63,495 nt of DNA from Dehalococcoidia bacterium (GTDB lineage: Bacteria; Chloroflexota; Dehalococcoidia; Lucifugimonadales; UBA3495). Position numbers and translations under genes: made by a program. The stretch covers positions 1-63,495 of the forward strand of contig DAOUHR010000157.1 of NCBI GenBank assembly GCA_034428635.1, in the 5' to 3' direction. Of this stretch, positions 3,121 through 35,014 are shown piece by piece. The notes beneath the pieces are model-generated. The model saw only the letters and a list, made by a program, of their open reading frames with translations, was not told the origin of the DNA and did not search any database. Positions within the stretch are counted from its first letter, which is position 1; the number at the start of each line of letters is the position of its first letter.

Positions 3121-3381
3121 TGGTTTCCTCCTGAATGACTTACGATTTTCGTTTGATTCGCGGCTTCTTCTGTAGCTGAGAGCAATCGCTCCGCCCGTTT
3201 TCGAGCCACCCATAATATACCTGCTGAATGGTGGCAAGTCCATACTGAAGGAGACCTCCCCCGTAGACGGTTCAGCCAACAGAGCTAGGTTAAGCAACGC
3301 CAGCCAGGAATCCACATTCCGCACCAGGGATGCAAATGGTAAAATTAGGGAAGACAGACCAAAAAACCACGGAGATGTCCA

Positions 3382-3888
3382 ATGGCCTTGAATCAGACCA
3401 TCCAGGAAGCCCTGAATCGGCACATAAACGAGGAATTTTTCGCTTCGTATCTCTATCTCTCCATGTCGGCCCATTGCGATTCACTGGACTTGCCCGGCTT
3501 CGCCCACTGGATGCGCATCCAGAGCCAGGAAGAGTATGCCCATGCAATGAATCTCTTTGACTTTGTCCAGGATCGGCAGGGCAAGGTAACATTGCTTCCC
3601 ATAGAACAGCCTTCAGTCGAATTCGGGTCCGTCCTGGACGTAATGGAGGCAACCCTGGGCCACGAGCGACAGGTCAGCCTTCTGATCAATGAACTCTATG
3701 AATTGGCATCCAAAGAAAGCGATTATCCCACGCAGGTTCATTTGCAGGCCTTCCTTACTGAGCAAATCGAAGAGGAGAAGACGGCGGCGGATATTATCGC
3801 CAAGCTGAAGCTCATCGGCGAAAACGGCAGCAACCTGCTGTTGCTGGACAACGAAATGGCTTCAAGGCAGATATCCCCCGGCCTGTAG
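3382..3888 (+). CDS. ftnA: Non-heme ferritin
   Basis: INEEFFASYLYLSMS, QSQEEYAHAM, HERQVS, EQIEEE ferroxidase-centre motifs; 168 aa. Confidence 0.92.
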   Translation: MALNQTIQEALNRHINEEFFASYLYLSMSAHCDSLDLPGFAHWMRIQSQEEYAHAMNLFDFVQDRQGKVTLLPIEQPSVEFGSVLDVMEATLGHERQVSLLINELYELASKESDYPTQVHLQAFLTEQIEEEKTAADIIAKLKLIGENGSNLLLLDNEMASRQISPGL

Positions 3889-4165
3889 GAAAGTTCTCAT
3901 CCAATGACGGCGCCGTGGCTAATCGCAATTCTGTCAATCTACGCCGAACAGGCTTTTCCTGCCCTGTCGAATAGCGTTCACTCTCTCTAGGCAGGGTGGG
4001 TCAATTGCCGGTATTGTTTCCCAAGTTAGCATTCCATACGGCAATTCCATCTGTTATAATCGGGTATGGAATGCGTTAAGGTTCTTTCCCGTGGGTAGTT
4101 GCCTCAGATGCGCTGACGCCGGATGACCTCGACCAGGCCAAATTTTCATTTATGGAGGTCGGCAG

Positions 4166-4462
4166 GTGGCGCTGTCAGATAAGACCTTGGTCTGCGTGGA
4201 ATGCGCAGCCGAATTTACATTTACCGTGGGGGAGCAGGAATTCTTTGCTTCCCGAGGATTCACCAACGAACCCAGGCGCTGTCCTGAGTGTCGTCAGACC
4301 CGCAAGTCCCAGCGTTCCTTCGAGGGAGGACCGAGGGAAATGCACCCGGCAGTTTGCGCCCAGTGCGGAATGGATACCATGGTCCCCTTCCGGCCGCGCG
4401 GTGACCGCCCGGTGTATTGCAGCGATTGCTTCAGTTCCATGCGTGAGAGCAACTACCGCTAG
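4166..4462 (+). CDS. Double zinc-ribbon protein (N-terminal zinc ribbon + CxxC-x17-CxxC domain)
   Basis: DKTLVCVEC..FTFTVGEQEFFASRGFTNEPRRCPECR and HPAVCAQCG...VPFRPRGDRPVYCSDCF. GGAGG RBS, TATAAT at 4055-4060. Confidence 0.9.
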   Translation: MALSDKTLVCVECAAEFTFTVGEQEFFASRGFTNEPRRCPECRQTRKSQRSFEGGPREMHPAVCAQCGMDTMVPFRPRGDRPVYCSDCFSSMRESNYR

Positions 4463-12968: not shown

Positions 12969-14147
12969 CTAGCTGAACCGGAAGACTCGGACTGCAACCA
13001 CTGCGGTTGCGGCCACCCAGCCGGCCAGCCAGGCCAGTTGCGGCCACACTTCCCAGGCAGTGGCGCCTTGCAGACCGATGTCCCGCATTGCGGTGATCAT
13101 TGGCGCCAGAGGGAGGGCATCGGCTGCATAGGGTAGCAGCCAGGGCAGGGCCGACGTCGAAAAGAAAGTGCCCGCGAAGAACATCATGGGCAGTGTCACC
13201 ACGTTGCCCATGCCCGAAGCCGCCGCCGGCGTATTTGCCCAGGCGGAGATAATGAACCCAAAGTTCAGGAAAACCGCGCTGCCCAGGAGTATCGCCGGCA
13301 GCATGTGGAGAACGTTTCCTTCTATCTGCGCCCCGAACAGGAAGACGCCCACCGCCAGAATGACCGCAGCCTGGACTACCGCCAGCAGCAGTTGCGCCGT
13401 TACCTCGGCAGCGAAGAATTTCCATATGGGCAGCGGGGTTACCAGCATCCGCTTCAGGATGGAAAGATTGCGGTAATTGCTGATTCGCACTGCGATGGAG
13501 ATAGTTCCATGGGTCATAATTCCCATTGCCACTAGTCCCAGCAATACCATCTCAAAATATGTGGCCGACTGGGTCGCCAGCCTCTCCGTCTGTACCATCT
13601 CCGCCATGGCCCCGACCGGCGCAGCCGCTGGTCGCTGGTTCTCCTCGTCCAGACCTGCAGCTTGTATAGTTGAGGAGATTTGTGCGCTCTGCCGCACCAT
13701 GCCAATTACCAGCTGATTCCTCTCTTCGCTTTCGCCCCCCAATAGCAAGGTTACTGGAACAACCCGGTCGGCCGATGAGCTCGGGAGGCCCTCCTGCCCG
13801 GAGGATTGGACCTCAAAGTCGGCTGAACTTGTGCCGAAGTCCGGCGGGATTGACAGCAGAAAGTCGAGGTCCCCGTCGGCGACCAGGCGTCGTCCCTCGT
13901 CAAGGCTTGAAGGCTGTTCCTGTCGGTCCAGTAGTCCCTTCGCTTCCAGTTCGGCAAACGACTCGACCAACAGGAGGGAGGCCGGAGTTCTTGCAGAATC
14001 AATAACGGCGATATTTGACGAAGCTGTCGCGGTAAAGTCAAAAAGTCCAAAAACGACTACCAGAACCAGCGGAAAGAACAAGGCCCAAAAAGTAGTCTGC
14101 CGGTTCCTGACCATCATCTTCAGGTTGGCAATGGTAAGGGCAAGCAC
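12969..14147 (-). CDS. ABC-2 type transporter permease
   Basis: RNRQTTFWALFFP, ILKRMLVTPL, LPMMFFAGTFF, six-TM pattern with a large extracytoplasmic loop. Confidence 0.88.
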   Translation of the reverse strand: MLALTIANLKMMVRNRQTTFWALFFPLVLVVVFGLFDFTATASSNIAVIDSARTPASLLLVESFAELEAKGLLDRQEQPSSLDEGRRLVADGDLDFLLSIPPDFGTSSADFEVQSSGQEGLPSSSADRVVPVTLLLGGESEERNQLVIGMVRQSAQISSTIQAAGLDEENQRPAAAPVGAMAEMVQTERLATQSATYFEMVLLGLVAMGIMTHGTISIAVRISNYRNLSILKRMLVTPLPIWKFFAAEVTAQLLLAVVQAAVILAVGVFLFGAQIEGNVLHMLPAILLGSAVFLNFGFIISAWANTPAAASGMGNVVTLPMMFFAGTFFSTSALPWLLPYAADALPLAPMITAMRDIGLQGATAWEVWPQLAWLAGWVAATAVVAVRVFRFS

Positions 14148-14149
14148 TG

Positions 14150-15097
14150 CTAGTCCCTCAGTTCGTTTCCGGTCAATTCCAGGAAGACGTCTTCCAGCGT
14201 GGCCGGCCTGATCTCCAGGTGTTTCAGGGAAATACCGCTGTTAACAATGCCGTCCATAGCCCGGTTCAGAGCCTCCGGGTTCCGGTCAAGTCGGAGAATG
14301 TAGGAGTTGGACATCTGGGCTTGCTCCCGCTCCCCGGAGTTTAGCCGTTCCACGTAGCCACCCTTCTGCAGGGCGTGGAGTTGGTCGTCGTCCAGGGGAC
14401 TCGCCGACTCCAATTTGACCGTATAGGTAGTTTCAATGCGGCTGATCAGTTCTCCGGGGGTATCGATTGCGACGATTTTGCCCCGGTCCATTATAGCCAG
14501 GCGCTGGCAGAGCAGTTCCGCTTCTTCCATGTAGTGGGTGGTCAACACTACTGTTACGTTGCGGGCGTGGATTGCCTGGATCAATTCCCAGAGGTTGTGG
14601 CGTGCTTGAGGATCCAGGCCGGTGGTTGGTTCATCCAGGATTACCAGATCCGGATCGTTGACCAGGCTGGCGGCCACGGTGAAGCGCTGAGATTGGCCGA
14701 TGGAAAGCTGGTTAATGCGGCTGTTGGCTCGGTCGGTCAGGCTTACCATCTCCAGCAGTTCCCGGGGGGGAATCCGCCTGGGGTAGAAGCTGCCCAGAAG
14801 GGTCAGAATTTCGTGGAGGGTCAGGAAGCCAAAATATGCAGAGGACTGGAGTTGGACGCCGGTGCGGGCTTTTATCCAGTTGGCGTCCTTCCGGATGTCC
14901 TTGCCCAGGACGTTAACCTGGCCTGCATCCGGTGTCTGCAGGCCCTCGATGATCTCCAGGGTAGTCGTCTTTCCTGCCCCGTTGGGGCCCAGGATGCCGA
15001 AAATCTCCCCGGCCTTCACATCAAAGGAAACGTCATCTACCGCGGTGAAACCGCCGTACCGTTTTGCCAGGCCTTCTACCCGAATCGCCTTTGACAT
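14150..15097 (-). CDS. ABC transporter ATP-binding protein (DrrA/NodI-like)
   Basis: GPNGAGKTT, LSIGQSQR, ILDEPTTGLD, TTHYMEEA. Start reassigned to ATG 15097 (MSKAIRVEGL). Confidence 0.92.
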   Translation of the reverse strand: MSKAIRVEGLAKRYGGFTAVDDVSFDVKAGEIFGILGPNGAGKTTTLEIIEGLQTPDAGQVNVLGKDIRKDANWIKARTGVQLQSSAYFGFLTLHEILTLLGSFYPRRIPPRELLEMVSLTDRANSRINQLSIGQSQRFTVAASLVNDPDLVILDEPTTGLDPQARHNLWELIQAIHARNVTVVLTTHYMEEAELLCQRLAIMDRGKIVAIDTPGELISRIETTYTVKLESASPLDDDQLHALQKGGYVERLNSGEREQAQMSNSYILRLDRNPEALNRAMDGIVNSGISLKHLEIRPATLEDVFLELTGNELRD

Positions 15098-15104
15098 GAT
15101 AGTA

Positions 15105-15122
15105 TGGTGAATTATATCACAA
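15105..15122. promoter_or_regulatory. Rex-like operator overlapping divergent promoters (ABC genes / ctaA)
   Basis: TGGTGAA-TTAT-ATCACAA matches the Rex consensus TTGTGAA-N4-TTCACAA at 12/14. It overlaps a minus-strand TGnTATAAT (15111-15119) and lies downstream of plus-strand TTGACA (15091-15096). Confidence 0.6.
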
Positions 15123-15143
15123 ACTTTTTGGGAGGCAGAAATA

Positions 15144-16286
15144 ATGCCCCCGTCGGGTTCCGGGGACTCGCCCGAAAGCGGTGACAGTTCCGGCGATAGT
15201 ATCATCTACACCAACGATTACGTTATCCTGACCAATGGTGAAAGGAGGCCCGGGCGGTGGCTGCGGCGGTTTGCCCTGGCTTCGGTGTTTGCTACCTTTG
15301 CCCTCATAGTTTTGGGCGGCATAGTTCGGGTAACCGGGTCGGGCCTGGGTTGCGGCGGCGAGTGGCCGCTGTGCGATGGCAGCCTCATTCCACCGCTGAC
15401 CAAGGAAGACATTATTGAATACAGCCACCGGCTTATGGCATCGGGCATAGTTGGTCCCCTGGTTGCTGGCACTTTTCTTATTGCCCTGTTCCGGTACCGG
15501 CGCGTCCGTGCCGTACTCATTCCCTCGGGCATATCGCTTGTTCTGCTGCTGGCCCAGGCCGGTCTGGGCGGCGTGACGGTATTGACCGAACTGCCCGGCC
15601 ACGTGGTCGCGGCCCACATGGCGCTGGCTCAGGCCCTGCTGGCGTGCCTCATACTGGTGGCCGTGGCATCCTTCAACCTCAAGCCGTCCGAATTGCAGCA
15701 GACTCCCACGGGCGACACCCAAATTTCTGCTCAACCTGAGGCGGCAGCGCCGGGACGTCCCAACCGCTTCCCCCTCCTTGCGGGAATAGCAGCCATTGCC
15801 ACTTATCTCCTGCTGCTATCCGGCTCCTACGTTACTGCCACACCGGGCGCGCTGGCCGCCTGTCCCAACTGGCCCCTGTGCGATGGTTCCGGTTCTCTCT
15901 GGCCCTCCAACAGCTTGGAAGCCATTCACATGCTGCACCGGGTTGTGGCCGCTGCGGTAGGAGTCCTCTTGCTGTACACTTTGCACCGGGGACGCCGGTT
16001 AGGCATGGAACGGATTGGTTCCGGCGGAACGATTTTGATGATCTTTTCTTACCTGGGCATCGTTGTCTTCCTTACCCAGGTGTTCATTGGCGCAGTAGCC
16101 ATCTGGACCCACTTTCCTGTTTCCATCCGCGCCTCCCACATTGGCCTGGCGACAGCGGTTTGGGGGATAATGGTTGTCGTAGCGCTGGTAAGCTATCTAC
16201 GTGTATCCGATGACCAGTTGGTGTTAAGCAAAGCCCGCGTGCCACGGGGTTCGGCGCCTGCCTCGGCCCCGCAGGAAACGGACTAA
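15144..16286 (+). CDS. ctaA: Heme A synthase (COX15/CtaA)
   Basis: GGIVRVTGSGLGCGGEWPLC, IEYSHR, AQAGLGGVTV, HMALA, second C..WPLC and HMLHR. Confidence 0.93.
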   Translation: MPPSGSGDSPESGDSSGDSIIYTNDYVILTNGERRPGRWLRRFALASVFATFALIVLGGIVRVTGSGLGCGGEWPLCDGSLIPPLTKEDIIEYSHRLMASGIVGPLVAGTFLIALFRYRRVRAVLIPSGISLVLLLAQAGLGGVTVLTELPGHVVAAHMALAQALLACLILVAVASFNLKPSELQQTPTGDTQISAQPEAAAPGRPNRFPLLAGIAAIATYLLLLSGSYVTATPGALAACPNWPLCDGSGSLWPSNSLEAIHMLHRVVAAAVGVLLLYTLHRGRRLGMERIGSGGTILMIFSYLGIVVFLTQVFIGAVAIWTHFPVSIRASHIGLATAVWGIMVVVALVSYLRVSDDQLVLSKARVPRGSAPASAPQETD

Positions 16287-16316: not shown

Positions 16317-17270
16317 ATGACGGAACAGCAAGCGGCAGTTGAGATTAGCCCCCCTGAAACCGAGGTTCAAGCTGAGGGTCGGCGAACTCCCATGACCGTG
16401 ATCAATGACTACATTACCCTGACAAAGCCACCGATCATTCTGCTGCTTTTGGTTACGGCGGCAGGCGGCATGTTCCTGGCCCAGGCCCAGACGGCCTCCG
16501 GTGGCCTGCCATCGCTATGGTTGATGGTGCTGGTTTGGGGGGGCGGGGCCCTTGCTTCCGGCGGTGCCAACGCCCTGAACCACCACTACGACCGGGATAT
16601 AGACGGTATTATGCAGCGCACCCGGCAGCGTCCGGTTGCCAGCAACCGCATATCTCCGGTCCATGCCCTGATCTTCGGCATTGTCCTCAACGTAGTCGCC
16701 TTTGTGGTGCTGGCCCTGTGGGTCAACTGGCTGGCGGCTGGTCTGACCCTTGCCGCTACCCTCTTCTACGTGCTGGTGTACACCCGCTGGCTGAAGCGCA
16801 CCACCCCCCACAACATCGTTATCGGCGGGGCCGCAGGCGCCATCCCGCCCATGGTGGGCTGGGCTGCGGTAACTGGCACTGTTGAATTGCCGGCAGTCTA
16901 CCTGTTCGCCATAGTTTTCTTCTGGACGCCGCCCCACTTCTGGGCGCTCTCCCTGCTCATTCACCGGGACTACGAGCGGGCAAGCGTGCCCATGCTGCCT
17001 GTGGTGTCGTCGCGGGACTTTACCGTGTCTACGATATTCCTCTACAGCCTGGTGCTGGTAGGGGTAACCCTGATGTTCGCCGTTACAGACGCCGTGGGCT
17101 GGATCTTTGGTGCGTCCGCCCTGGCGCTGGGGGGAATATTCATCTGGATGGCGTGGCGCTTGCGGCAGGAAGAGAACTCCGCCAATGCCAGGAAACTCTA
17201 CCTGTACTCCCTGCTTTATTTGGGATTGCTGTTCGTCGCGGTAATGGTGGGGGCCGCCACCGGCTATTAG
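16317..17270 (+). CDS. ctaB: Protoheme IX farnesyltransferase (heme O synthase)
   Basis: LTKPPI, LNHHYDRDIDGIMQRTRQRP, LKRTTPHNIVIGGAAGAIPP, FFWTPPHFWAL. Confidence 0.95.
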   Translation: MTEQQAAVEISPPETEVQAEGRRTPMTVINDYITLTKPPIILLLLVTAAGGMFLAQAQTASGGLPSLWLMVLVWGGGALASGGANALNHHYDRDIDGIMQRTRQRPVASNRISPVHALIFGIVLNVVAFVVLALWVNWLAAGLTLAATLFYVLVYTRWLKRTTPHNIVIGGAAGAIPPMVGWAAVTGTVELPAVYLFAIVFFWTPPHFWALSLLIHRDYERASVPMLPVVSSRDFTVSTIFLYSLVLVGVTLMFAVTDAVGWIFGASALALGGIFIWMAWRLRQEENSANARKLYLYSLLYLGLLFVAVMVGAATGY

Positions 17271-17421: not shown

Positions 17422-17541
17422 ACTCCGCGCTTGAGTGCACGGCGAAGTAAGAAAGGGAGTTGGCAAATGGGGCTTTTGCCCTTCCGAGGCGCAGATTCCC
17501 AGACCCTTCGGGCCGGGGATAAAAAAGGCAAGACCACACTT

Positions 17542-18660
17542 ATGTCCAAGCGGTTAACCTTCTCACGGAAACACCTCTTCCTACTGGGTTTCACGGCCAT
17601 CCCCTTCCTGGTTATGGCCTGCGCCCCGGATGCCAGGCAGTCCACTTTCGGCACATCCGGTCCTGTAGCTGAGAAACAGCTACTGCTGTTTAACGTTCTC
17701 CTCTGGGTAATGGTCGTCGTTTTTGTCCTGGTAGAGGGCGTCCTGCTCTACGCCGTCATCAAGTTCCGGCGTAGGCCCGGGCAAAACGAGCTTCCTCCCC
17801 AGACTCACGGTCACACTGCCCTGGAAATCACGTGGACCATTGTTCCTACGATTCTTATCCTGGCTCTGGGTATCTGGTCTGCAGTTACCCTTTTTGATCT
17901 TGACCAGCCGCCCTCCGGCGCCGATACGCTGCAGGTAACTGCTGTCGGCCATCAATGGTGGTGGGAGTTCGAATATCCTGACGCCGATGGCAATGGCAAG
18001 TACATAAGCACGGCCAATGAACTCCGGGTGCCGGTTGACCGGGCCGTCAGAGTAGACCTGCGAAGTGACGACGTAATCCACAGTTTCTGGATTCCCAAGC
18101 TGGCAGGCAAAATTGATATGGTCCCTACCCGTGAGAACTACATGTGGTTCCAGGCTGATGAGACCGGCACATTTTATGGCCAGTGTGCAGAATTCTGTGG
18201 TACTGCCCATGCCCAGATGAAATTCCTTGTCCAGGTGTTGCCTCAGGAAGACTATCTCGCCTGGGCGGAGAGCTTTGGCGAAGTCCCGGTCCTTTCAGCC
18301 AAGGCCCAGGCGGGACAGGCGGTGTTTAATGGCACCGGCGGATGCGTTGTTTGCCATACCGCCACCGGGTCCGATGACCCCGCAGTTGTTGCCAGCCGAG
18401 TCCAGAGCTTCCTGACTACTGAGACGGGTATTGCTCCGGGCCCCAATCTGACCGACCTGGCCACCCGCGAACGATTTGGCGCTGGCCTGGTGGATTTGAA
18501 CCGGCAGAACCTGCGCCAGTGGATAAAGAACCCTGAAGACGTCAAACCTGGAAATCATATGTCCGGCAGGGCCGCCATTTACCAGAATTCAGACGGGCAG
18601 GCCAGCCTGAGTGAAACCGAGATTTCCTCCTTGCTGGAATACTTGCTTAGCTTAAAGTAA
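17542..18660 (+). CDS. coxB: Cytochrome c oxidase subunit II with fused C-terminal cytochrome c (caa3 type), lipoprotein
   Basis: Start reassigned to ATG 17542 (MSKRLTF..LVMAC lipobox). GHQWWW, DVIHSFW, CuA motif CAEFCGTAHAQM, heme c CVVCH with distal PGNHM. Confidence 0.95.
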   Translation: MSKRLTFSRKHLFLLGFTAIPFLVMACAPDARQSTFGTSGPVAEKQLLLFNVLLWVMVVVFVLVEGVLLYAVIKFRRRPGQNELPPQTHGHTALEITWTIVPTILILALGIWSAVTLFDLDQPPSGADTLQVTAVGHQWWWEFEYPDADGNGKYISTANELRVPVDRAVRVDLRSDDVIHSFWIPKLAGKIDMVPTRENYMWFQADETGTFYGQCAEFCGTAHAQMKFLVQVLPQEDYLAWAESFGEVPVLSAKAQAGQAVFNGTGGCVVCHTATGSDDPAVVASRVQSFLTTETGIAPGPNLTDLATRERFGAGLVDLNRQNLRQWIKNPEDVKPGNHMSGRAAIYQNSDGQASLSETEISSLLEYLLSLK

Positions 18661-18712: not shown

Positions 18713-20785
18713 ATGGCCACTTTAACCGATGTAATTGAACGGCCAACCAGTCAATCCGGACTGTGGAGCTGGATTACGACGGTTGACCACAAAAGAATAG
18801 GCGTACTTTATGGTGTTACCGCCTTCATCTTCCTGCTCTTGGGCGGAATTGAGGCGGGAATAATCCGGTTGCAGCTTTCCGTGCCTGACAGCACGTTAGT
18901 CAGTCCGGATACTTTCAACCAGATGTTTACCATGCACGGCACCACCATGATCTTCCTGGTGATCATGCCGTTGAGCGCCAGTTTCTTCAACTTCGTTATT
19001 CCTTTGGCAATCGGCGCCAGGGATGTGGCCTTCCCCCGGCTGAATGCCTTCAGTTACTGGGTTTTCCTGTTCGGCGGGTTGCTGCTTAATGCCAGCTTCC
19101 TTACCAATCAGGCCCCCGACGCTGGCTGGTTTTCTTACGCCAACCTTACCGAAAAGCCCTTCAGCGCCAACCAGGGCCTCGATTATTGGGCTCTGGGCCT
19201 GCAGGTGCTGGGCGTTTCCTCCCTGGCCGCGGCGTTTAACTTCATAGTAACCATCGTCAACATGCGGGCTCCCGGCATGAGCCTAATGCGGATGCCCCTG
19301 TTTGTCTGGATGACCCTGGTCACTTCAATCCTTCTGGTCCTCGCCTTCCCGGTGATTACCGTGGGGCTCATTGAACTGACCCTTGACCGTAACTTCGGCA
19401 CAAACTTCTTCGTGCCCGAAGGCGGCGGAGACCCCATTCTGTGGCAGCACCTGTTCTGGGTGTTCGGCCATCCCGAAGTGTATATTCTGATTCTTCCTGC
19501 CATGGGCATTGTCTCGGAAGTACTGCCCACCTTTTCCCGGAAGCCGCTTTTTGGTTACCCGGTGGTTGTCTTCTCCGGCGTGGTAATCGGCATCATGGGC
19601 TGGGCCGTTTGGAGCCACCACATGTTCACGGTGGGTCTCGGCCCCGTAGCCGTCACCGTCTTCATGATCACAACCATGCTCATTGCAGTCCCCACGGGTG
19701 TAAAGATTTTCAACTGGATTGGCACCCTGTGGGGCGGACAGATTGACCTTAAGACGGCCATGCTCTTTTCCCTTGGATTCGTGGCCCTGTTCATAGTGGG
19801 CGGCCTTAGCGGAGTGTCCCACGCGGTGGCTCCTTCGGATAATCAGCAGCAGGATACTTACTATATTGTCGCTCACATCCACTACGTGCTGTTCGGCGGC
19901 TCCCTGTTTGGAATTTTCTCCGGTGTTTACTACTGGTTCCCCAAGCTTACCGGCAGGCTTTTCAATGAAGGGTTAGGCAAGCTGCATTTTTGGCTGTATT
20001 TCATTGGAATGAACGTTACGTTCTTCCCGATGCACTACTTGGGTTTGAACGGTATGCCCCGCCGGATTTATACCTATGCCAGTGAATTTGGCTGGGACGG
20101 GTTGAATTTGCTGGCCTCCCTGGGCTATCTGGTTCTTTTCGCGGGTACCTTGATCTTCGTGATTAACGTGTTGATAAGCCTGCGCAAGGAACCCGATGCC
20201 GGGCATGATCCGTGGGATGCCCCAGGCCTGGAATGGAGTATTGCCTCACCGCCACCGAGTTATAACTTTGCAAAGATTCCCGAGGTAGAAGGCCTGGACC
20301 ACTACTGGATCGTCAAGCGTCGGGCTGCGGCAGAGGGCCGGCCCGTCACGGAACCGGAAGCCTATGTGGACCCCAGCACAATCCATATGCCGGATCCCTC
20401 TTACTGGCCGCTGATAACTGCCATAGGTGTGCTTGTTCTGGCAGCGGGAATGTTGTTCGATACCGGGTGGGACTATATCCGGTTCCCGATACCCTTTATC
20501 GGCGGCATCATCTGTTTTATTGGAATAATTGGCTGGTCCAATGAGCCGCCGGCCCGGGAGCATGCCGGTGGAGACCACCATGCGGAGGGTGACCACGGTC
20601 GCGAACCGCACGCCGTAACCGCGACCACAACAGCTGTAATGGAACGCCCTGCCGGGACGGCCTCACTTACAGTCCGGCTGCTTTGCTCCAATTGCGGCAA
20701 TCAATTGTCATCGTCTTTCCGATTCTGCCCCTATTGCGGCGGAGCGGTTGAAAATCCCGCTGAACCAGACCACCAGGAGGGGTAG
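18713..20785 (+). CDS. coxA: Cytochrome c oxidase subunit I (type A1) with extra TM helices and a His-rich/zinc-ribbon C-terminal tail
   Basis: TTVDHKRIG, MHGTTMIF, D-channel DVAFPRLN, GHPEVY, WSHHMF, K-channel PTGVKIF, AHIHY, GMPRR; tail CSNC...FCPYC. Confidence 0.97.
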   Translation: MATLTDVIERPTSQSGLWSWITTVDHKRIGVLYGVTAFIFLLLGGIEAGIIRLQLSVPDSTLVSPDTFNQMFTMHGTTMIFLVIMPLSASFFNFVIPLAIGARDVAFPRLNAFSYWVFLFGGLLLNASFLTNQAPDAGWFSYANLTEKPFSANQGLDYWALGLQVLGVSSLAAAFNFIVTIVNMRAPGMSLMRMPLFVWMTLVTSILLVLAFPVITVGLIELTLDRNFGTNFFVPEGGGDPILWQHLFWVFGHPEVYILILPAMGIVSEVLPTFSRKPLFGYPVVVFSGVVIGIMGWAVWSHHMFTVGLGPVAVTVFMITTMLIAVPTGVKIFNWIGTLWGGQIDLKTAMLFSLGFVALFIVGGLSGVSHAVAPSDNQQQDTYYIVAHIHYVLFGGSLFGIFSGVYYWFPKLTGRLFNEGLGKLHFWLYFIGMNVTFFPMHYLGLNGMPRRIYTYASEFGWDGLNLLASLGYLVLFAGTLIFVINVLISLRKEPDAGHDPWDAPGLEWSIASPPPSYNFAKIPEVEGLDHYWIVKRRAAAEGRPVTEPEAYVDPSTIHMPDPSYWPLITAIGVLVLAAGMLFDTGWDYIRFPIPFIGGIICFIGIIGWSNEPPAREHAGGDHHAEGDHGREPHAVTATTTAVMERPAGTASLTVRLLCSNCGNQLSSSFRFCPYCGGAVENPAEPDHQEG

Positions 20786-20787
20786 AG

Positions 20788-21468
20788 TTGGCCCACCAAA
20801 CGGAAATGACCCATCACGCTCCCGAGGAGGAGCACCCGACTACAACGGGTATCAACAACCGCAAGTTGTTGATGTGGGTGTTCCTGTCGTCGGACTGCCT
20901 GTTCTTTGGTTCACTGATTGCGACTTACATGGTTTACCGGGGTCAAAGCCTTGTGGGGCCCTACCCGGTGGACATTATCGACGTTCCCGTTACCACCATC
21001 AGCACCTTCGTCCTGCTTTGCAGTAGTTTCGCCATGGTGAGGGCGCTGGCTGCCACCAACGAGGACCGGCAGGGTGCAATAATTGTTTGGCTTTTGCTGA
21101 CGGCGTTTCTTGGGGCCATATTTATCGGGTTCCAGGTCTATGAGTTTAACCTGTTCCGGGAGGAGGGTCTGCGGATTGATACCAACCTGTTTGGTACAAC
21201 CTTCTTCACCCTGACCGGGTTCCACGGGGCCCACGTTACTCTTGGTATCGTCTGGCTGCTTGGTCTTGCCTGGATTGCCAAGAAGGGGCGCCTGGGGCCT
21301 AAGACCGCCCTGGACGTAGAACTGGCCGGCCTTTACTGGCACTTTGTCGATATCGTCTGGATCGTAATCTTTACCCTTTTGTACCTGATTGGCGGGTTCG
21401 ACACCGGCCCGGCCGGAGACCCGTCCCTGGTCCCACACTCGATCACCGGCTTGCTGGGTCTGATCTAA
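20788..21468 (+). CDS. coxC: Cytochrome c oxidase subunit III (short form)
   Basis: MWVFLSSDCLFFGSLI, FFTLTGFHGAHV, GLYWHFVDIVW. Confidence 0.95.
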   Translation: MAHQTEMTHHAPEEEHPTTTGINNRKLLMWVFLSSDCLFFGSLIATYMVYRGQSLVGPYPVDIIDVPVTTISTFVLLCSSFAMVRALAATNEDRQGAIIVWLLLTAFLGAIFIGFQVYEFNLFREEGLRIDTNLFGTTFFTLTGFHGAHVTLGIVWLLGLAWIAKKGRLGPKTALDVELAGLYWHFVDIVWIVIFTLLYLIGGFDTGPAGDPSLVPHSITGLLGLI

Positions 21469-21481
21469 GGAGATACGGCGC

Positions 21482-22291
21482 ATGAGCAGCGACCCCGGGG
21501 TTCACGAATCCCGCCACCCTACGCTCAAACAGTATGTGTGGATTGCCATATTCCTGTTTGTCGTAACTTTAGTTGAGTTCGTGATCATCCTGCCTGAGGA
21601 TTTCCGAGGACAGGGCTGGACCATCGCTCCCCTGGCCTTACTGTCGGCCATCAAGTTCGCCGCCGTTATCTTCTTCTACATGCATTTGAAGTTCGACAGT
21701 CGGCTGCTGACGTGGGTCTTCCTGGGTGGTCTGGCGTTGGGCTTTGCCGTGGTATTCGCATTGATTGGCTTGTTCGGTACCTTCACGCCATCTCCCAGGG
21801 CTTGGGCAGAGGACCATGCCAAACCCTGCACTTTCGACCATGAATATGTCTGTGTCGAGTACAGGCCCACGGCGACTCCGCTCCCTGCTCCCACCCCTGA
21901 GGGCGGCGTTGCCCCGACTTCGGTTCCGGCTCCAGACTCGGCGGCCGCGGCTGGCTCCGGCGAACTGTTGGGAATTGGCCAGCAGATTTTCCTTACCGGG
22001 CAGGGTGAGGGAACTGCCACGGGATGCTATACCTGCCATACGATTGCTGGATTGGAGGGCGCTTCCGGTTTGCTGGGCCCCGACTTGACCACCATAGGCG
22101 CCGACGCGGCCAATCGGCAGCCGGGTGTATCCGCAGAAGACTACTTGAGGCAGTCGATCACTGAGCCGGAAAGCTTTGTTGCTGAAGGGGTCGAAAGAGC
22201 CGTCCCGGGCTTGATGCTGTCTGCCTTGACCGGAGGTCTGACCGATAACGACGTGAACGCCCTGGTAGCTTTCTTGTTGGAGCAAAAATAA
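21482..22291 (+). CDS. Cytochrome c oxidase subunit IV (CtaF-like) fused to a C-terminal class I cytochrome c
   Basis: N-terminal QYVWIAIFLFVVTLVE...KFAAVIFFYMHLKFDSRLL (subunit IV signature), then a Pro-rich linker, CYTCH...GPDL...YLRQSI..P...VPGLM. Confidence 0.85.
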   Translation: MSSDPGVHESRHPTLKQYVWIAIFLFVVTLVEFVIILPEDFRGQGWTIAPLALLSAIKFAAVIFFYMHLKFDSRLLTWVFLGGLALGFAVVFALIGLFGTFTPSPRAWAEDHAKPCTFDHEYVCVEYRPTATPLPAPTPEGGVAPTSVPAPDSAAAAGSGELLGIGQQIFLTGQGEGTATGCYTCHTIAGLEGASGLLGPDLTTIGADAANRQPGVSAEDYLRQSITEPESFVAEGVERAVPGLMLSALTGGLTDNDVNALVAFLLEQK

Positions 22292-22346: not shown

Positions 22347-22374
22347 CGCCCGTCACAGTCGGGCGGTTTTTCTT
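22347..22374 (+). terminator. Intrinsic terminator of the oxidase operon
   Basis: accgcccg-tcacagt-cgggcggt followed by ttttcttt. Confidence 0.75.
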
Positions 22375-22451
22375 TGGCCCTTCCTGTGCTAACCTTTTTT
22401 CTAGTATCGGCTTCATCCCCATCCCTTGCGCACGGTTGCAGGAGGGTGAAT

Positions 22452-22790
22452 ATGGCTAAAATTCTTCACCTCATTACGGAGCAGGACTGGGAGTCCGCTC
22501 GCGACGCCTGCCAATGGCGCCCCGGCAGCCTGGCTGAAGAAGGATTTATCCATTGTTCTGCGGACGAAGAGCAGGCAATGCGGGTTGTGGCGCGTCTATA
22601 CCCGGACCGCACCGATATGCTTGCCCTGGAAGTGGATACCGATAAGCTAAATTATTCGGTTGTCTCCGAACCAAGCCGTTCCGGTGAGATTTACCCCCAC
22701 ATTTATGGTCCTCTGGAAATGAGCGCTGTCGTTATGGTCTGGCGTGTCAATGCAGACGGGCAGGGCGGCTACGCTCTATCCGATCAATAG
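22452..22790 (+). CDS. DUF952 family protein
   Basis: Start reassigned to ATG 22452 (GGAGG RBS). ILHLIT..DWESA, SLAEEGFIHCS, EIYPHIYGPL. Confidence 0.88.
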   Translation: MAKILHLITEQDWESARDACQWRPGSLAEEGFIHCSADEEQAMRVVARLYPDRTDMLALEVDTDKLNYSVVSEPSRSGEIYPHIYGPLEMSAVVMVWRVNADGQGGYALSDQ

Positions 22791-22884
22791 AGTCTGGCGT
22801 TGCCGACAGTCCTTTCCCGAAGCCAACATATCATCCCTGACCAGCGTTCTAATCCGCTGCTTCAGGGGAAGCCAAGGCAGCGCT

Positions 22885-23901
22885 ATGGCTGACTACACTG
22901 ATGTGGAAATGGCCCGCCTGCGCTCGGCTCTCGTCAACTTCCGGACACTTTCTAATGACGACCTCCAGGAGATTGGCCGCGCCATTGAAGCTGGCCACTG
23001 TCCTCCCCACCTGGGGCCCTTCTGGCGGCTGGCGTCGTCCGATAACGACCACGCCGCCGCCGCCGATCTGTTTCGCAAACTTGAGGGCGATCGCCTCGTG
23101 GCGAGCTACTCATGCTACGGCTTTTTCCCTGGCATTCACTCCCGGCTGTACCAACAGGGTGAGCGCCCCGAGTTCTGGCTTGATGGCCGGACGCGCGGCC
23201 AGGTGGCGCTGTTCCGGTTCGCCAGCGGGAAAGGGTTTGTGGTCAAGCCCCTGCAAAGTCGAAGGGAGGCAGAAATCGCCCGCCTCGCGGGGGACGCCGG
23301 GGTCGGCCCCCACCAATTTACGTCGCTGGAAGGTTTCCTGGTAGAAGAACTGGTGAATGGCCGGTTTATTACAGAGTACGCCGAAGAAGAACTGGATGAC
23401 GGTCTGATTTTCCAAATTGGCCTCACCTTGGGTTCCATGCTTTCAACTCTGCACAACGCAGGTATCTGCTACAACGATGCCACCCTGTCCGACCCGGACG
23501 GCCGCTCCCACCTGTTCGTCCGACTGCCGGATGAGAACCGGCCCGGGCAGCCTCCCGCCTGTACACTCATTGACTTTGGGGTGTCCGTATTCCTGGACAG
23601 GTTTCCTTACCTGGAGTTGGAAGAGGTCTTCAACCTGGTGCGGACAACCCCTGAATACCGTTTTGTGTCCCGCCTGGGACTGCGGGGAAATGAACTTAGC
23701 CGATTTCTGGTCCAGTACCGGCAGAGATTGTCTGCCAGCGACAAGGAAGAAATCCTGGCTCGCGACCTGCGCTTTACTCAGGAAGGGTTGCAGCAGGCTT
23801 CCCGCAGCATGGGCGCGGGCATAATTGCCCCGTTCCAGCAGGGGTTCACCGAGGGCTACGACAGGAAGGGTTGGTATTCGCATCCACCGGTGGTAGGATG
23901 A
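22885..23901 (+). CDS. Atypical protein-kinase-like fold protein (Bud32/RIO/Kdo-like)
   Basis: Start reassigned to ATG 22885. FVVKP (beta3 Lys), RREAE (helix C Glu), LVEELVNG, LHNAGICYND, LIDFG. Confidence 0.6.
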   Translation: MADYTDVEMARLRSALVNFRTLSNDDLQEIGRAIEAGHCPPHLGPFWRLASSDNDHAAAADLFRKLEGDRLVASYSCYGFFPGIHSRLYQQGERPEFWLDGRTRGQVALFRFASGKGFVVKPLQSRREAEIARLAGDAGVGPHQFTSLEGFLVEELVNGRFITEYAEEELDDGLIFQIGLTLGSMLSTLHNAGICYNDATLSDPDGRSHLFVRLPDENRPGQPPACTLIDFGVSVFLDRFPYLELEEVFNLVRTTPEYRFVSRLGLRGNELSRFLVQYRQRLSASDKEEILARDLRFTQEGLQQASRSMGAGIIAPFQQGFTEGYDRKGWYSHPPVVG

Positions 23902-33539: not shown

Positions 33540-34334
33540 TCAGGTAGCCGTCCCCGCGCCCCAGGTTACGCCGAAGTCGGCCCGCTCCACCACCTGCCCG
33601 GTAAAGGTTTCGGCGGTCTGACCGGCCAGCCACACGGCGGCCTCGGTAACTTCGTCAGGCTGGACCATGGGGATATGGGCGGTTCCAGGCCAGTCGCCGC
33701 GCCGGTTCATCCAGGTATCAACCCGGCCGGGACTGAACAGGTTGACGGCGATGTTATCGGGTCGGACCTCTTCCGCCAGGCTCAGAAGCATTCTTTCCAG
33801 GGCCGCCTTGCTCATGGAATAGCCCACCCGGCCTTCGCGGTAGCCCCTGGCGGAACCGGAGGTCACCCCGATTATTGAACCGGAACTCCGCGCTATCATG
33901 GAGGGAAGGGCAAACTTGCAAAGCAGCAGGGGAGCCCGCACGTTCACCGCCAGCGCGCGGTCCAGCAGCTCGGGATCCAGATCAACGACGGGGGACTCGC
34001 AGTCTATGCCCGCGTTGGAAAATAGGATATCAATTCCGCCGTATTGGGTGGCCGCAGTCTTTACCAGGTTCTGCAGGTCTGAGGGGTTGGTAACGTCGCA
34101 TTTAACTGCGATGGCATCGCCGCCGTCATCCAGGATGCTGCGAACCGTGTCGTGGATGTTTCCCGAGGCGTACCTTTCATATGCGGCGCCCGGCGTCGCT
34201 TCTTCCTCGGTGCGTGAAGCGACCACTACCCTGGCTCCGGCCTGGGCCAGCCCCCTGCTGACAGCCCTGCCTATGCCCCGGCTGCCGCCGGTAACAATAG
34301 CTACCTTGTTGGTCAGGTCCACGGCCCCACCCAC
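33540..34334 (-). CDS. Short-chain dehydrogenase/reductase
   Basis: TGGSRGIG, SNAG, YSMSK; the GTG start overlaps the upstream TAG. Confidence 0.92.
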   Translation of the reverse strand: MGGAVDLTNKVAIVTGGSRGIGRAVSRGLAQAGARVVVASRTEEEATPGAAYERYASGNIHDTVRSILDDGGDAIAVKCDVTNPSDLQNLVKTAATQYGGIDILFSNAGIDCESPVVDLDPELLDRALAVNVRAPLLLCKFALPSMIARSSGSIIGVTSGSARGYREGRVGYSMSKAALERMLLSLAEEVRPDNIAVNLFSPGRVDTWMNRRGDWPGTAHIPMVQPDEVTEAAVWLAGQTAETFTGQVVERADFGVTWGAGTAT

Positions 34335-34765
34335 TAGCTGGCGGGGCGGAACTTGGGCAGGCTTATGGTCTCGGTCAGGTCATCGAAAGTAACTTCCACC
34401 GCCATGCCGCACTTGATTACTTCCGGGTCCGCCTCAATGTCCACCAGGTGGGCAATAATGCGGGCGCCTTCTTCCAGTTCAACTATGACCGGAACATAGG
34501 GCACCATGTCGCGGAAGGCCGGCGTGGGCGCCCGGTGCACGATGCAGAAAGTATGGACATTGCCGCGGCCGCTGCTCTTAACCCAGTCGGTGTTGCGGGA
34601 AAAACAGGCCGGACAAATGTCCCGGGGGTAGAAGTAAGTATTGCCGCAAGCGACGCAATGGCGAAGCCACAACTCTTTCTCCTTGCATTTCTTCCAGTAA
34701 AAGTCCGATTCCGGCTGGGGAACCGGGGGAGTTATGGGCGGGGCGGGCTGGTTCTGCTGGGACAT
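34334..34765 (-). CDS. Zn-ribbon/OB-fold protein (DUF35/ChsH2-like)
   Basis: Start reassigned to ATG 34765. CVACG...YPRDICPAC, SSGRGNVHTF, VELEEGARI. Confidence 0.9.
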   Translation of the reverse strand: MSQQNQPAPPITPPVPQPESDFYWKKCKEKELWLRHCVACGNTYFYPRDICPACFSRNTDWVKSSGRGNVHTFCIVHRAPTPAFRDMVPYVPVIVELEEGARIIAHLVDIEADPEVIKCGMAVEVTFDDLTETISLPKFRPAS

Positions 34766-35014
34766 CCGCTGCTCCTTGTCCGGGCCGGCAAATGAGGTAG
34801 GCCCATTAAACTGTGCAATAGATTTGGCTTCTGGCTCTCTCCTCGAAGCAAACCCAGCATAAGTAGAAAACAAAGCCCAGTCAAGGCAATTATCTAAGTA
34901 CGCAGTGTTGTGGTCACGGCCGGAAGACCTTAGTGAACGGTTGTAATCTCTTACAGCCGGGTTTATCGTTCATTCTGCTATTTGCTGGGAAACTGGAGAA
35001 CTCGGGAGTGAACA

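Follow-up and report, generated by a model that had tools for sequence, protein, structure and literature searches.

A predicted cytoplasmic zinc ribbon at the C-terminus of the catalytic subunit of a caa3-type cytochrome c oxidase in SAR202 Dehalococcoidia

Subunit I of a cytochrome c oxidase encoded by a Dehalococcoidia bacterium of the Chloroflexota (GTDB lineage Lucifugimonadales, UBA3495; assembly GCA_034428635.1) ends in a four-cysteine zinc ribbon that is kept throughout most of one clade of its relatives. The gene, coxA, lies at 18713-20785 (stop codon included) on the forward strand of contig DAOUHR010000157.1, of which the whole analysed stretch of 63,495 nucleotides is called here the window. 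Its product of 690 residues consists of a COX1 core, two additional transmembrane helices (TM13-14), a linker and the ribbon. The ribbon is a conserved module of a metal-binding type, predicted to be cytoplasmic and carried by the catalytic subunit outside the catalytic core. Its most likely role, to which we give a probability of about one half, is that of a structural Zn(Cys)4 module for interactions on the N-side of the membrane.

The coxA frame is unbroken over its whole length and ends in ...IGWSNEPPAREHAGGDHHAEGDHGREPHAVTATTTAVMERPAGTASLTVRLLCSNCGNQLSSSFRFCPYCGGAVENPAEPDHQEG before the stop. Read directly from the sequence, the tail runs ...IGWSNEPP-AREHAGGDHHAEGDHGREPHAVTATTTAVMERPAGTASL-TVRLLCSNCGNQLSSSFRFCPYCGG-AVENPAEPDHQEG, and the peptides that meet at the junction of linker and ribbon are ...PAGTASLTVR and LLCSNCGNQLSSSFR. 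The TAG stop occupies positions 20783-20785 and the TTG start of coxC lies at 20788, which leaves the gap of 2 nucleotides (nt) claimed by an earlier, sequence-only reading of this DNA; comparison with the open reading frame (ORF) and the nucleotides showed that its description of the coxA tail was accurate throughout. The acidic C-terminal peptide AVENPAEPDHQEG (20744-20785 with the stop) is conserved among relatives and overlaps the Shine-Dalgarno sequence of coxC, AGGAGG at 20775-20780, which falls within the Q-E-G codons of coxA. The presence of the coxC ribosome-binding site inside the last coxA codons accounts for the conserved ...QEG or ...EEG ending. An exact-protein look-up of the CoxA of the window returned no record.

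The ribbon itself (residues 655-677, TVRLLCSNCGNQLSSSFRFCPYCGG; 20675-20743) follows the motif CxxC-x10-CxxC, here CSNC-x10-CPYC. Its cysteine codons are located at 20684-20686, 20693-20695, 20726-20728 and 20735-20737 (Cys658, Cys661, Cys672 and Cys675). Residues 658-676 match the Pfam family Zn_Ribbon_1 (PF13240) above its gathering threshold (GA) of 25 bits, both in the whole protein (27.1 bits, E 3.4e-6) and in the tail alone (31.2 bits, E 1.8e-7), and weaker matches were obtained to the sibling ribbon families Zn_ribbon_3, DZR and Zn_ribbon_15. The preceding linker (residues 610-654; 20540-20674) is rich in His, Asp and Glu, is predicted to be disordered and varies in length and sequence among orthologues. 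Its residues 612-654 had a predicted local distance difference test score (pLDDT) below 50 in a full-length AlphaFold2 (AF2) model. When only the tail was modelled, from a 17-row alignment, the ribbon reached a pLDDT of 87-90, with short strands around the knuckles, and the linker stayed at about 48-66. The models thus describe the tail as a small, confidently modelled module, which probably folds as a ribbon, on a disordered tether.

Upstream of this tail, CoxA has the features of an A-family oxidase. The COX1 core (residues 28-473; 18794-20131) matches PF00115 with 543.9 bits (GA 34.8), and the protein exceeds the cut-off of the NCBIfam model for cytochrome c oxidase subunit I (TIGR02891, 727.1 bits against 670.75). 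The equivalog models of QoxB and CyoB stay below their own cut-offs, yet they align (TIGR02882 among them) through about residues 586-603. H75, H253, E255, Y257, H302, H303, H388 and H390 are all present and form invariant columns in our alignment A3; from the motifs GHPEVY, HHMF and AHIHY we take them to be the six His metal ligands, the cross-linked Tyr and the Glu of an A1-type D-channel. We therefore assign CoxA to the A1-type CtaD/CoxA proteins, as a 14-TM, Bacillus-like subtype that carries a PF13240 ribbon, and the enzyme is predicted to be a caa3-type (A-family) cytochrome c oxidase and not a quinol oxidase.

The TM13-TM14 extension (residues 565-609; 20405-20539) contains two helices in the AF2 model, at 565-579 and 593-609. 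The best solved homologue of CoxA, QoxB of the Bacillus subtilis aa3-600 oxidase (6KOB), aligns over query residues 16-603, while the alignments to Escherichia coli CyoB (1FFT) and to the Thermus subunit I+III fusion (2YEV) extend to residues 600 and 589. The product of coxC, in turn, covers only positions 90-256 of the 258 of the Pfam COX3 profile. Together these alignments indicate that TM13-14 are equivalent to helices 1 and 2 of a canonical subunit III with 7 TM, and that CoxC makes up the other five. The division between CoxA and CoxC would then be the Bacillus/bo3 arrangement, in agreement with the Bacillus-type two-helix extension noted from the sequence before (the 6KOB alignment over 16-603, and the TIGR02882 and CyoB models to about 590-603). 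AF2 secondary structure gives CoxA 14 TM helices and no TM0. Helix I of subunit I has an N-in orientation, and in QoxB- and CyoB-type proteins the C-terminus is cytoplasmic. An even number of helices after an N-in helix I places the CoxA tail in the cytoplasm (N-side), so the cytoplasmic location proposed earlier for the ribbon is supported both by the predicted helices and by homology to QoxB and CyoB through TM13-14. The ribbon is accordingly predicted to adjoin the N-terminus of CoxC, at the place where a canonical 7-TM subunit III has its TM2-TM3 loop.

Related loci were retrieved from one genome per GTDB species with the C-terminal motif [IW]G[IV][IV][GA]W[SA]NE, and 80 of 112 confirmed loci were kept, these 80 all being from Dehalococcoidia. 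The genomes are labelled as Dehalococcoidia, "SAR202 cluster" or Chloroflexota metagenome-assembled genomes (MAGs), many with names in the style of sponge microbiomes. An in-frame ribbon was found in 19 complete CoxA genes among the kept loci, besides that of the window, and also in the 3'-partial gene of locus L008. Full-length metagenome orthologues that are 74-93% identical (P0008-P0017, P0019, P0020 and P0024) carry the precomputed pair PF00115+PF13240, and P0008 is encoded on an independent long-read contig with identical gene order. The frame runs through TM13-14, linker and ribbon in short-read JGI contigs (L002, L004) and in an ENA contig (L001), and the same frame is found in contigs with SPAdes-, MEGAHIT- and hifiasm-style names and in chromosome-level MAGs. 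The tail is therefore not peculiar to this assembly but is shared by about 20 Dehalococcoidia/SAR202 species genomes and many metagenome proteins. The COX1 plus zinc ribbon architecture that the sequence-only reading had put forward is confirmed by PF00115 and PF13240, both above threshold in one ORF, and relatives without a ribbon end, as it had expected, in a short His-rich tail directly after TM14. The fusion is genuine and not an assembly artefact.

L001 and L003, both on ENA long-read contigs, contain frameshifts that split many genes (coxA, coxC, the ABC transporter), and these gave the misleading partial proteins P0001 and P0003 and an out-of-frame ribbon in L003. We rejected a fusion of the ribbon to coxC in L003: this error-prone contig has several frameshifts at runs of G, and in L025, the intact counterpart, ribbon and coxA share one frame. 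The reading of P0004, annotated as "ribosomal protein S27AE", as a small gene of its own was rejected too, because the sequence is the 3' end of a coxA cut off by the start of a contig. Query choice mattered in these searches: the 166-residue C-terminus retrieved only 7 partial proteins, and complete orthologues came from the full-length query. A phmmer search with the 49-residue ribbon against 1.84 billion representative proteins gave 2502 matches with E<=1e-3, mostly multi-ribbon proteins; it ranks matches by summed repeats and COX1 collapses at 50% clustering, so ribbons in other oxidase lineages would not be visible in it.

In a neighbour-joining tree of 77 CoxA cores (tails removed; no bootstrap values), all ribbon-bearing proteins form one clade, and the other 55 CoxA end in His-rich tails of 7-20 residues such as AEEHHEAEGHH. 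The tree indicates a single gain of the ribbon, in one SAR202/Dehalococcoidia clade. A free-standing ribbon ORF between coxA and coxC was found in none of the relatives, which argues for accretion at the 3' end of coxA and not for the fusion of a neighbouring gene. All of 20 sequences compared share the four Cys, the two Phe of F-x-F, the P and G of CPxCG and the 10-residue spacing, whereas both synonymous codons, TGC and TGT, are in use for the Cys. Over 25 ribbon codons the mean pairwise nonsynonymous and synonymous distances (dN and dS) are 0.22 and 1.01, a dN/dS ratio of about 0.22. Judged from these values, the ribbon is under purifying selection.

The surroundings of the ribbon are far more variable. 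Across orthologues the linker ranges from 3 to 45 residues and the ribbon stays the same, a pattern that a folded module on a tether would produce. In L023-L025 the linker has just 3 residues; here the ribbon comes about 8 residues after TM14, with the His-rich peptide behind it and not ahead of it. Within the ribbon clade of the tree, L023 branches off deepest. L022 (OY730415.1, ~3230-3516) carries two ribbons in tandem, CSACG...CPYCG and CSTCG...CPHCG, which together match Pfam DZR with 45 bits. Counted together, the CoxA tail and the CoxC N-terminus have about 8-10 His whether or not a clade carries the ribbon, and three ribbon-bearing species have no His-rich linker. As the His count is similar without the ribbon, His-richness is a trait of the family and only the ribbon is a novelty of the clade.

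Taking these observations together, we hypothesize that the ribbon would fold around one structural Zn(II) held by Cys658, Cys661, Cys672 and Cys675 and serve as a built-in accessory domain that mediates protein-protein contacts at the N-side surface of the oxidase complex. Candidate partners would be the N-terminus of CoxC, which the ribbon could clasp, another subunit or N-side surface, or a partner that is soluble or belongs to a neighbouring complex. The enzyme would be stabilised or organised in this way, with no part for the ribbon in catalysis. The His-rich and acidic linker would act as a flexible tether and extend the cytoplasmic, His-rich fringe that the whole family has where subunits I and III meet; this fringe may itself collect protons or bind metal near the proton-uptake surface. 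We infer the interaction role from the generic ribbon family, the fixed ribbon on a free linker and the tandem duplication of L022; the membrane-proximal ribbon in short-linker members, including the deepest branch L023, points in the same direction.

Several results weigh against this hypothesis. Zinc is the metal that we infer, since the identity of a metal cannot be read from sequence. The full-length AF2 model, computed from a 36-sequence alignment of low diversity, has a mean pLDDT of 47 and is too poor to place the ribbon. Foldseek comparison of the tail model with the PDB found no significant match (best E 0.28), although the top, non-significant alignments (the lid of a Bacillus adenylate kinase, the rubredoxin-like domain of LapB, archaeal ribosomal ribbons, aIF2-gamma and Nob1) are all structural Cys4 zinc knuckles; a sequence search of the PDB with the tail gave only ribosomal L32, also non-significant (E 0.39). 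CoxA substitutions specific to the ribbon clade are not enriched in cytoplasmic loops (4/142 cytoplasmic positions against 10/100 periplasmic ones), and thus CoxA shows no trace of a docking surface that co-evolved with the ribbon within the same chain. The CoxA substitutions, the neighbouring genes and the AF2 model revealed neither a partner nor a docking site. In two relatives, moreover, the ribbon is replaced or its frame disrupted. In L033/P0018 (CBDBMH010000002.1, ~3240-3564), inside the ribbon clade, the ribbon is replaced by a CD225 domain (PF04505, 70.3 bits), and in L014 (OZ219949.1, ~3400-3465) the reading frame changes between the two knuckles through an insertion of 1 nt (tcctacgttcc against tcct-ctttcc). 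Both cases suggest that the ribbon is dispensable in at least some backgrounds, and the replacement in L033 suggests that the CoxA C-terminus is a hotspot for domain swapping. CD225 is the interferon-induced transmembrane protein family, a two-segment membrane domain unrelated to the ribbon; in L033 it stands after the same His-rich start. The sequence of L014 downstream of the insertion is otherwise fully conserved, which implies an assembly error or a very recent lesion.

Other functions can be proposed for the same tail. It could be a redox- or metal-gated turnover signal, in which the long cytoplasmic tail offers a handle to membrane AAA proteases, for example FtsH: the ribbon with its Zn would form a stable cap, and oxidation of the Cys or loss of Zn would unfold the cap, expose the disordered tail and deliver a damaged oxidase to degradation. 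Cys4-Zn sites are known as redox switches, and FtsH is a weak unfoldase that requires an accessible cytoplasmic tail. A disordered linker followed by a small folded Cys4 module near the cytoplasmic C-terminal end has the right layout for such a signal, and the zinc domain of LapB, part of an FtsH adaptor, is among the closest folds, a resemblance that is non-significant and no more than that. However, L023-L025 have nearly no linker, so that a ribbon about 8 residues past TM14 leaves little handle, the true terminus is the post-ribbon peptide and not the ribbon, and no result supports turnover directly. We consider this explanation, including the proposed cap, improbable.

Equally unlikely in our opinion is a role as metal buffer, in which Zn, Cd or Cu would be bound at the N-side surface by the Cys4 site together with the His/Asp/Glu linker, so that inhibitory metals are kept from the entrances of the D and K proton-uptake pathways, or as a proton antenna made of His and carboxylates. 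Zn inhibits proton uptake in A-type oxidases, and surface antennae of His and carboxylates are established. The about 8-10 His that CoxA tail and CoxC N-terminus contain in all clades, the many acidic residues around them and the location at the N-side subunit I/III junction are consistent with both functions. They would not explain, however, why the ribbon was gained and retained, because His-richness is the same without it; the three ribbon-bearing species that have no His-rich linker ahead of the ribbon also argue against them, and a Cys4 ribbon holds a single ion tightly and would buffer poorly.

A rubredoxin-like Fe(Cys)4 centre that trades electrons with a cytoplasmic partner is very unlikely. 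Both knuckles have the form CxxCG/CPxCG found in rubredoxins, and there is a weak NCBIfam match to the rubrerythrin-like Cys4 domain NF033497 (E 0.0037, 16.9 bits, cut-off 32). Nevertheless, the Pfam scan of CoxA gave no rubredoxin family, the 10-residue spacing is that of a zinc ribbon and the best Pfam matches are zinc-ribbon families. Moreover, the N-side surface of the oxidase is distant from heme a and the a3-CuB centre, and no electron path is obvious. Finally, the idea that the tail is an artefact, fused by a frameshift or by read-through, or a neutral appendage with no function, is largely refuted and hardly credible: the disrupted frames of L014 (1-nt insertion in the ribbon) and L003 (ribbon out of frame) and the tolerance of the C-terminus for other additions such as the CD225 of L033 would fit it, but about 20 independent species genomes keep the frame, as do many metagenome assemblies, the Cys are invariant and dN/dS is 0.22, the clade is monophyletic with members 74-93% identical to the CoxA of the window over the whole protein, and L003 belongs to an error-prone long-read contig with other frameshifts whose intact counterpart L025 is in frame.

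The oxidase is encoded by an operon in the order ctaA-ctaB-coxB-coxA-coxC-coxD, all on the forward strand, which provides subunits II and III and the genes of heme A biosynthesis. The first gene, ctaA (15144-16286), encodes heme A synthase of the COX15-CtaA family (PF02628, 113.5 bits), and ctaB (16317-17270) a heme O synthase of the UbiA family (PF01040, 213.6 bits). Subunit II, encoded by coxB (17431-18660; Pfam COX2_TM, COX2 and Cytochrom_C), bears a C-terminal cytochrome c domain, as in caa3-type enzymes; the real coxB start may lie downstream of the TTG at 17431, the orthologue in L085 being called at 397 residues. The coxC gene (20788-21468; Pfam COX3) starts with TTG and encodes the short, 5-TM-type subunit III, whose N-terminus (MAHQTEMTHHAPEEEH...) is rich in His. 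Its LAH... beginning is conserved in all loci as M/L-A-H..., and the N-terminal segment (20788-20850, and the same positions in L026-L084) is rich in His and acidic residues and variable. It is longest, with up to 10 His, in the clades with the shortest CoxA tail, as if His content were traded across the subunit I/III junction.

The last gene, coxD (21482-22291), encodes a subunit IV fused to a cytochrome c domain (PF03626 and PF00034), an arrangement kept across Dehalococcoidia loci. COX4_pro covers residues 20-90 and the cytochrome c domain residues 179-267. With cytochrome c domains on both CoxD and CoxB, the complex is expected to contain two c-type haems. When coxD was used as a tblastn query, most loci of both clades matched through the C-terminal cytochrome c part, and the subunit IV part alone was matched in a few (e.g. 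L032, L065, L067, L071, L073 and L075).

Genes flanking the operon encode a luciferase-like monooxygenase, family III CoA-transferases, MmgE/PrpD and others. An ABC-2 type exporter (ATPase and permease; 12969-15205, reverse strand) is divergent from ctaA, likewise in L001 and L085. On the 3' side of the operon, a DUF952 gene (22374-22790) and an ORF of 385 residues without Pfam match (22744-23901) follow on the forward strand. The same pair stands beside the cox operons of several non-ribbon clades, there on the opposite strand, which suggests a conserved linkage with the oxidase genes. Both were rejected as ribbon-specific partners for the same reason, as they accompany cox operons without ribbon too. 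Two further ORFs of the window with Cys4 motifs, CAQCG-x17-CSDC (4127-4462, forward strand) and CVACG-x10-CPAC (34334-34969, reverse strand), have no apparent link to the oxidase.

Bacterial A-type oxidases are usually viewed as minimal enzymes of three or four subunits, and soluble N-side modules as a mitochondrial elaboration. A full-text literature search brought up no heme-copper oxidase subunit for which a zinc ribbon is described, and the fusion of a ribbon to CoxA appears to be undescribed, visible only in pairs of precomputed Pfam matches to which no comment is attached. Among the abundant, uncultured SAR202 bacteria of the sea and of sponges, a whole clade keeps a Cys4 domain of a metal-binding type on the catalytic subunit, predicted to lie beside the proton-uptake surface where subunits I and III meet. 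Should the ribbon stabilise, organise or regulate the complex, it would offer a simple, genetically tractable model for COX5B-like zinc modules, and it would also mark a distinctive SAR202 respiratory chain, which has in addition the fusion of subunit IV to cytochrome c. If it is only a structural staple, it would still illustrate cleanly how a domain can accrete to a protein that ranks among the most conserved known. It is tempting to go further and propose that a bacterial lineage, free-living or symbiotic, independently evolved an equivalent of COX5B/Cox4 that is needed for assembly or stability, or a thiol-based redox or zinc switch that couples the lifetime or activity of the oxidase to the redox or metal state of the cytoplasm. 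We regard this as doubtful; if true, it would be the first regulatory metal site that is covalently part of the catalytic subunit of a prokaryotic heme-copper oxidase.

Comparison with known systems helps to define what is new in CoxA. Like CoxA, CtaD and QoxB of B. subtilis and CyoB of E. coli (14 or 15 TM) combine an A-family core with a TM13-14 pair that replaces the first two helices of subunit III, and subunit I of this Bacillus/quinol type is paired with a short 5-TM subunit III, as CoxA is with CoxC. Unlike the quinol oxidases, CoxA lacks TM0 and is, by TIGR02891, classed as a subunit of a cytochrome c oxidase (caa3). Whereas the alignments with the solved QoxB and CyoB chains end at 600-603, CoxA adds about 80 residues after TM14 with the Cys4 ribbon. 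The Thermus thermophilus caa3 I+III fusion (2YEV) also extends subunit I C-terminally with subunit III helices. There, however, the whole of subunit III is fused and no soluble domain is present, while in CoxA the chain breaks after the second helix and the zinc ribbon stands at the break.

With Zn_Ribbon_1 (PF13240) and DZR (PF12773) the CoxA ribbon shares the CxxC-x10-CxxC pattern and the FCPxCG second knuckle, and the tandem of L022 resembles DZR. We know of no function for the PF13240 family as such, and membership in it says little about the role of the ribbon. The nearest functional analogue would be mitochondrial COX5B (subunit Vb; Cox4 in yeast), which places a Zn(Cys)4 site on the N-side (matrix) face of an A-type oxidase and has a structural or assembly role, not a catalytic one. 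The likeness is functional and positional only, and at best convergent: PF01215 was not among the Pfam matches of CoxA with E<=1, the PDB sequence search gave no COX5B chain with E<=1, and no COX5B chain was among the best 50 of the 362 Foldseek matches (E<=10) of the tail model. COX5B is moreover a separate, nuclear-encoded subunit of about 100 residues, while the CoxA ribbon comprises about 25 residues and is covalently part of subunit I.

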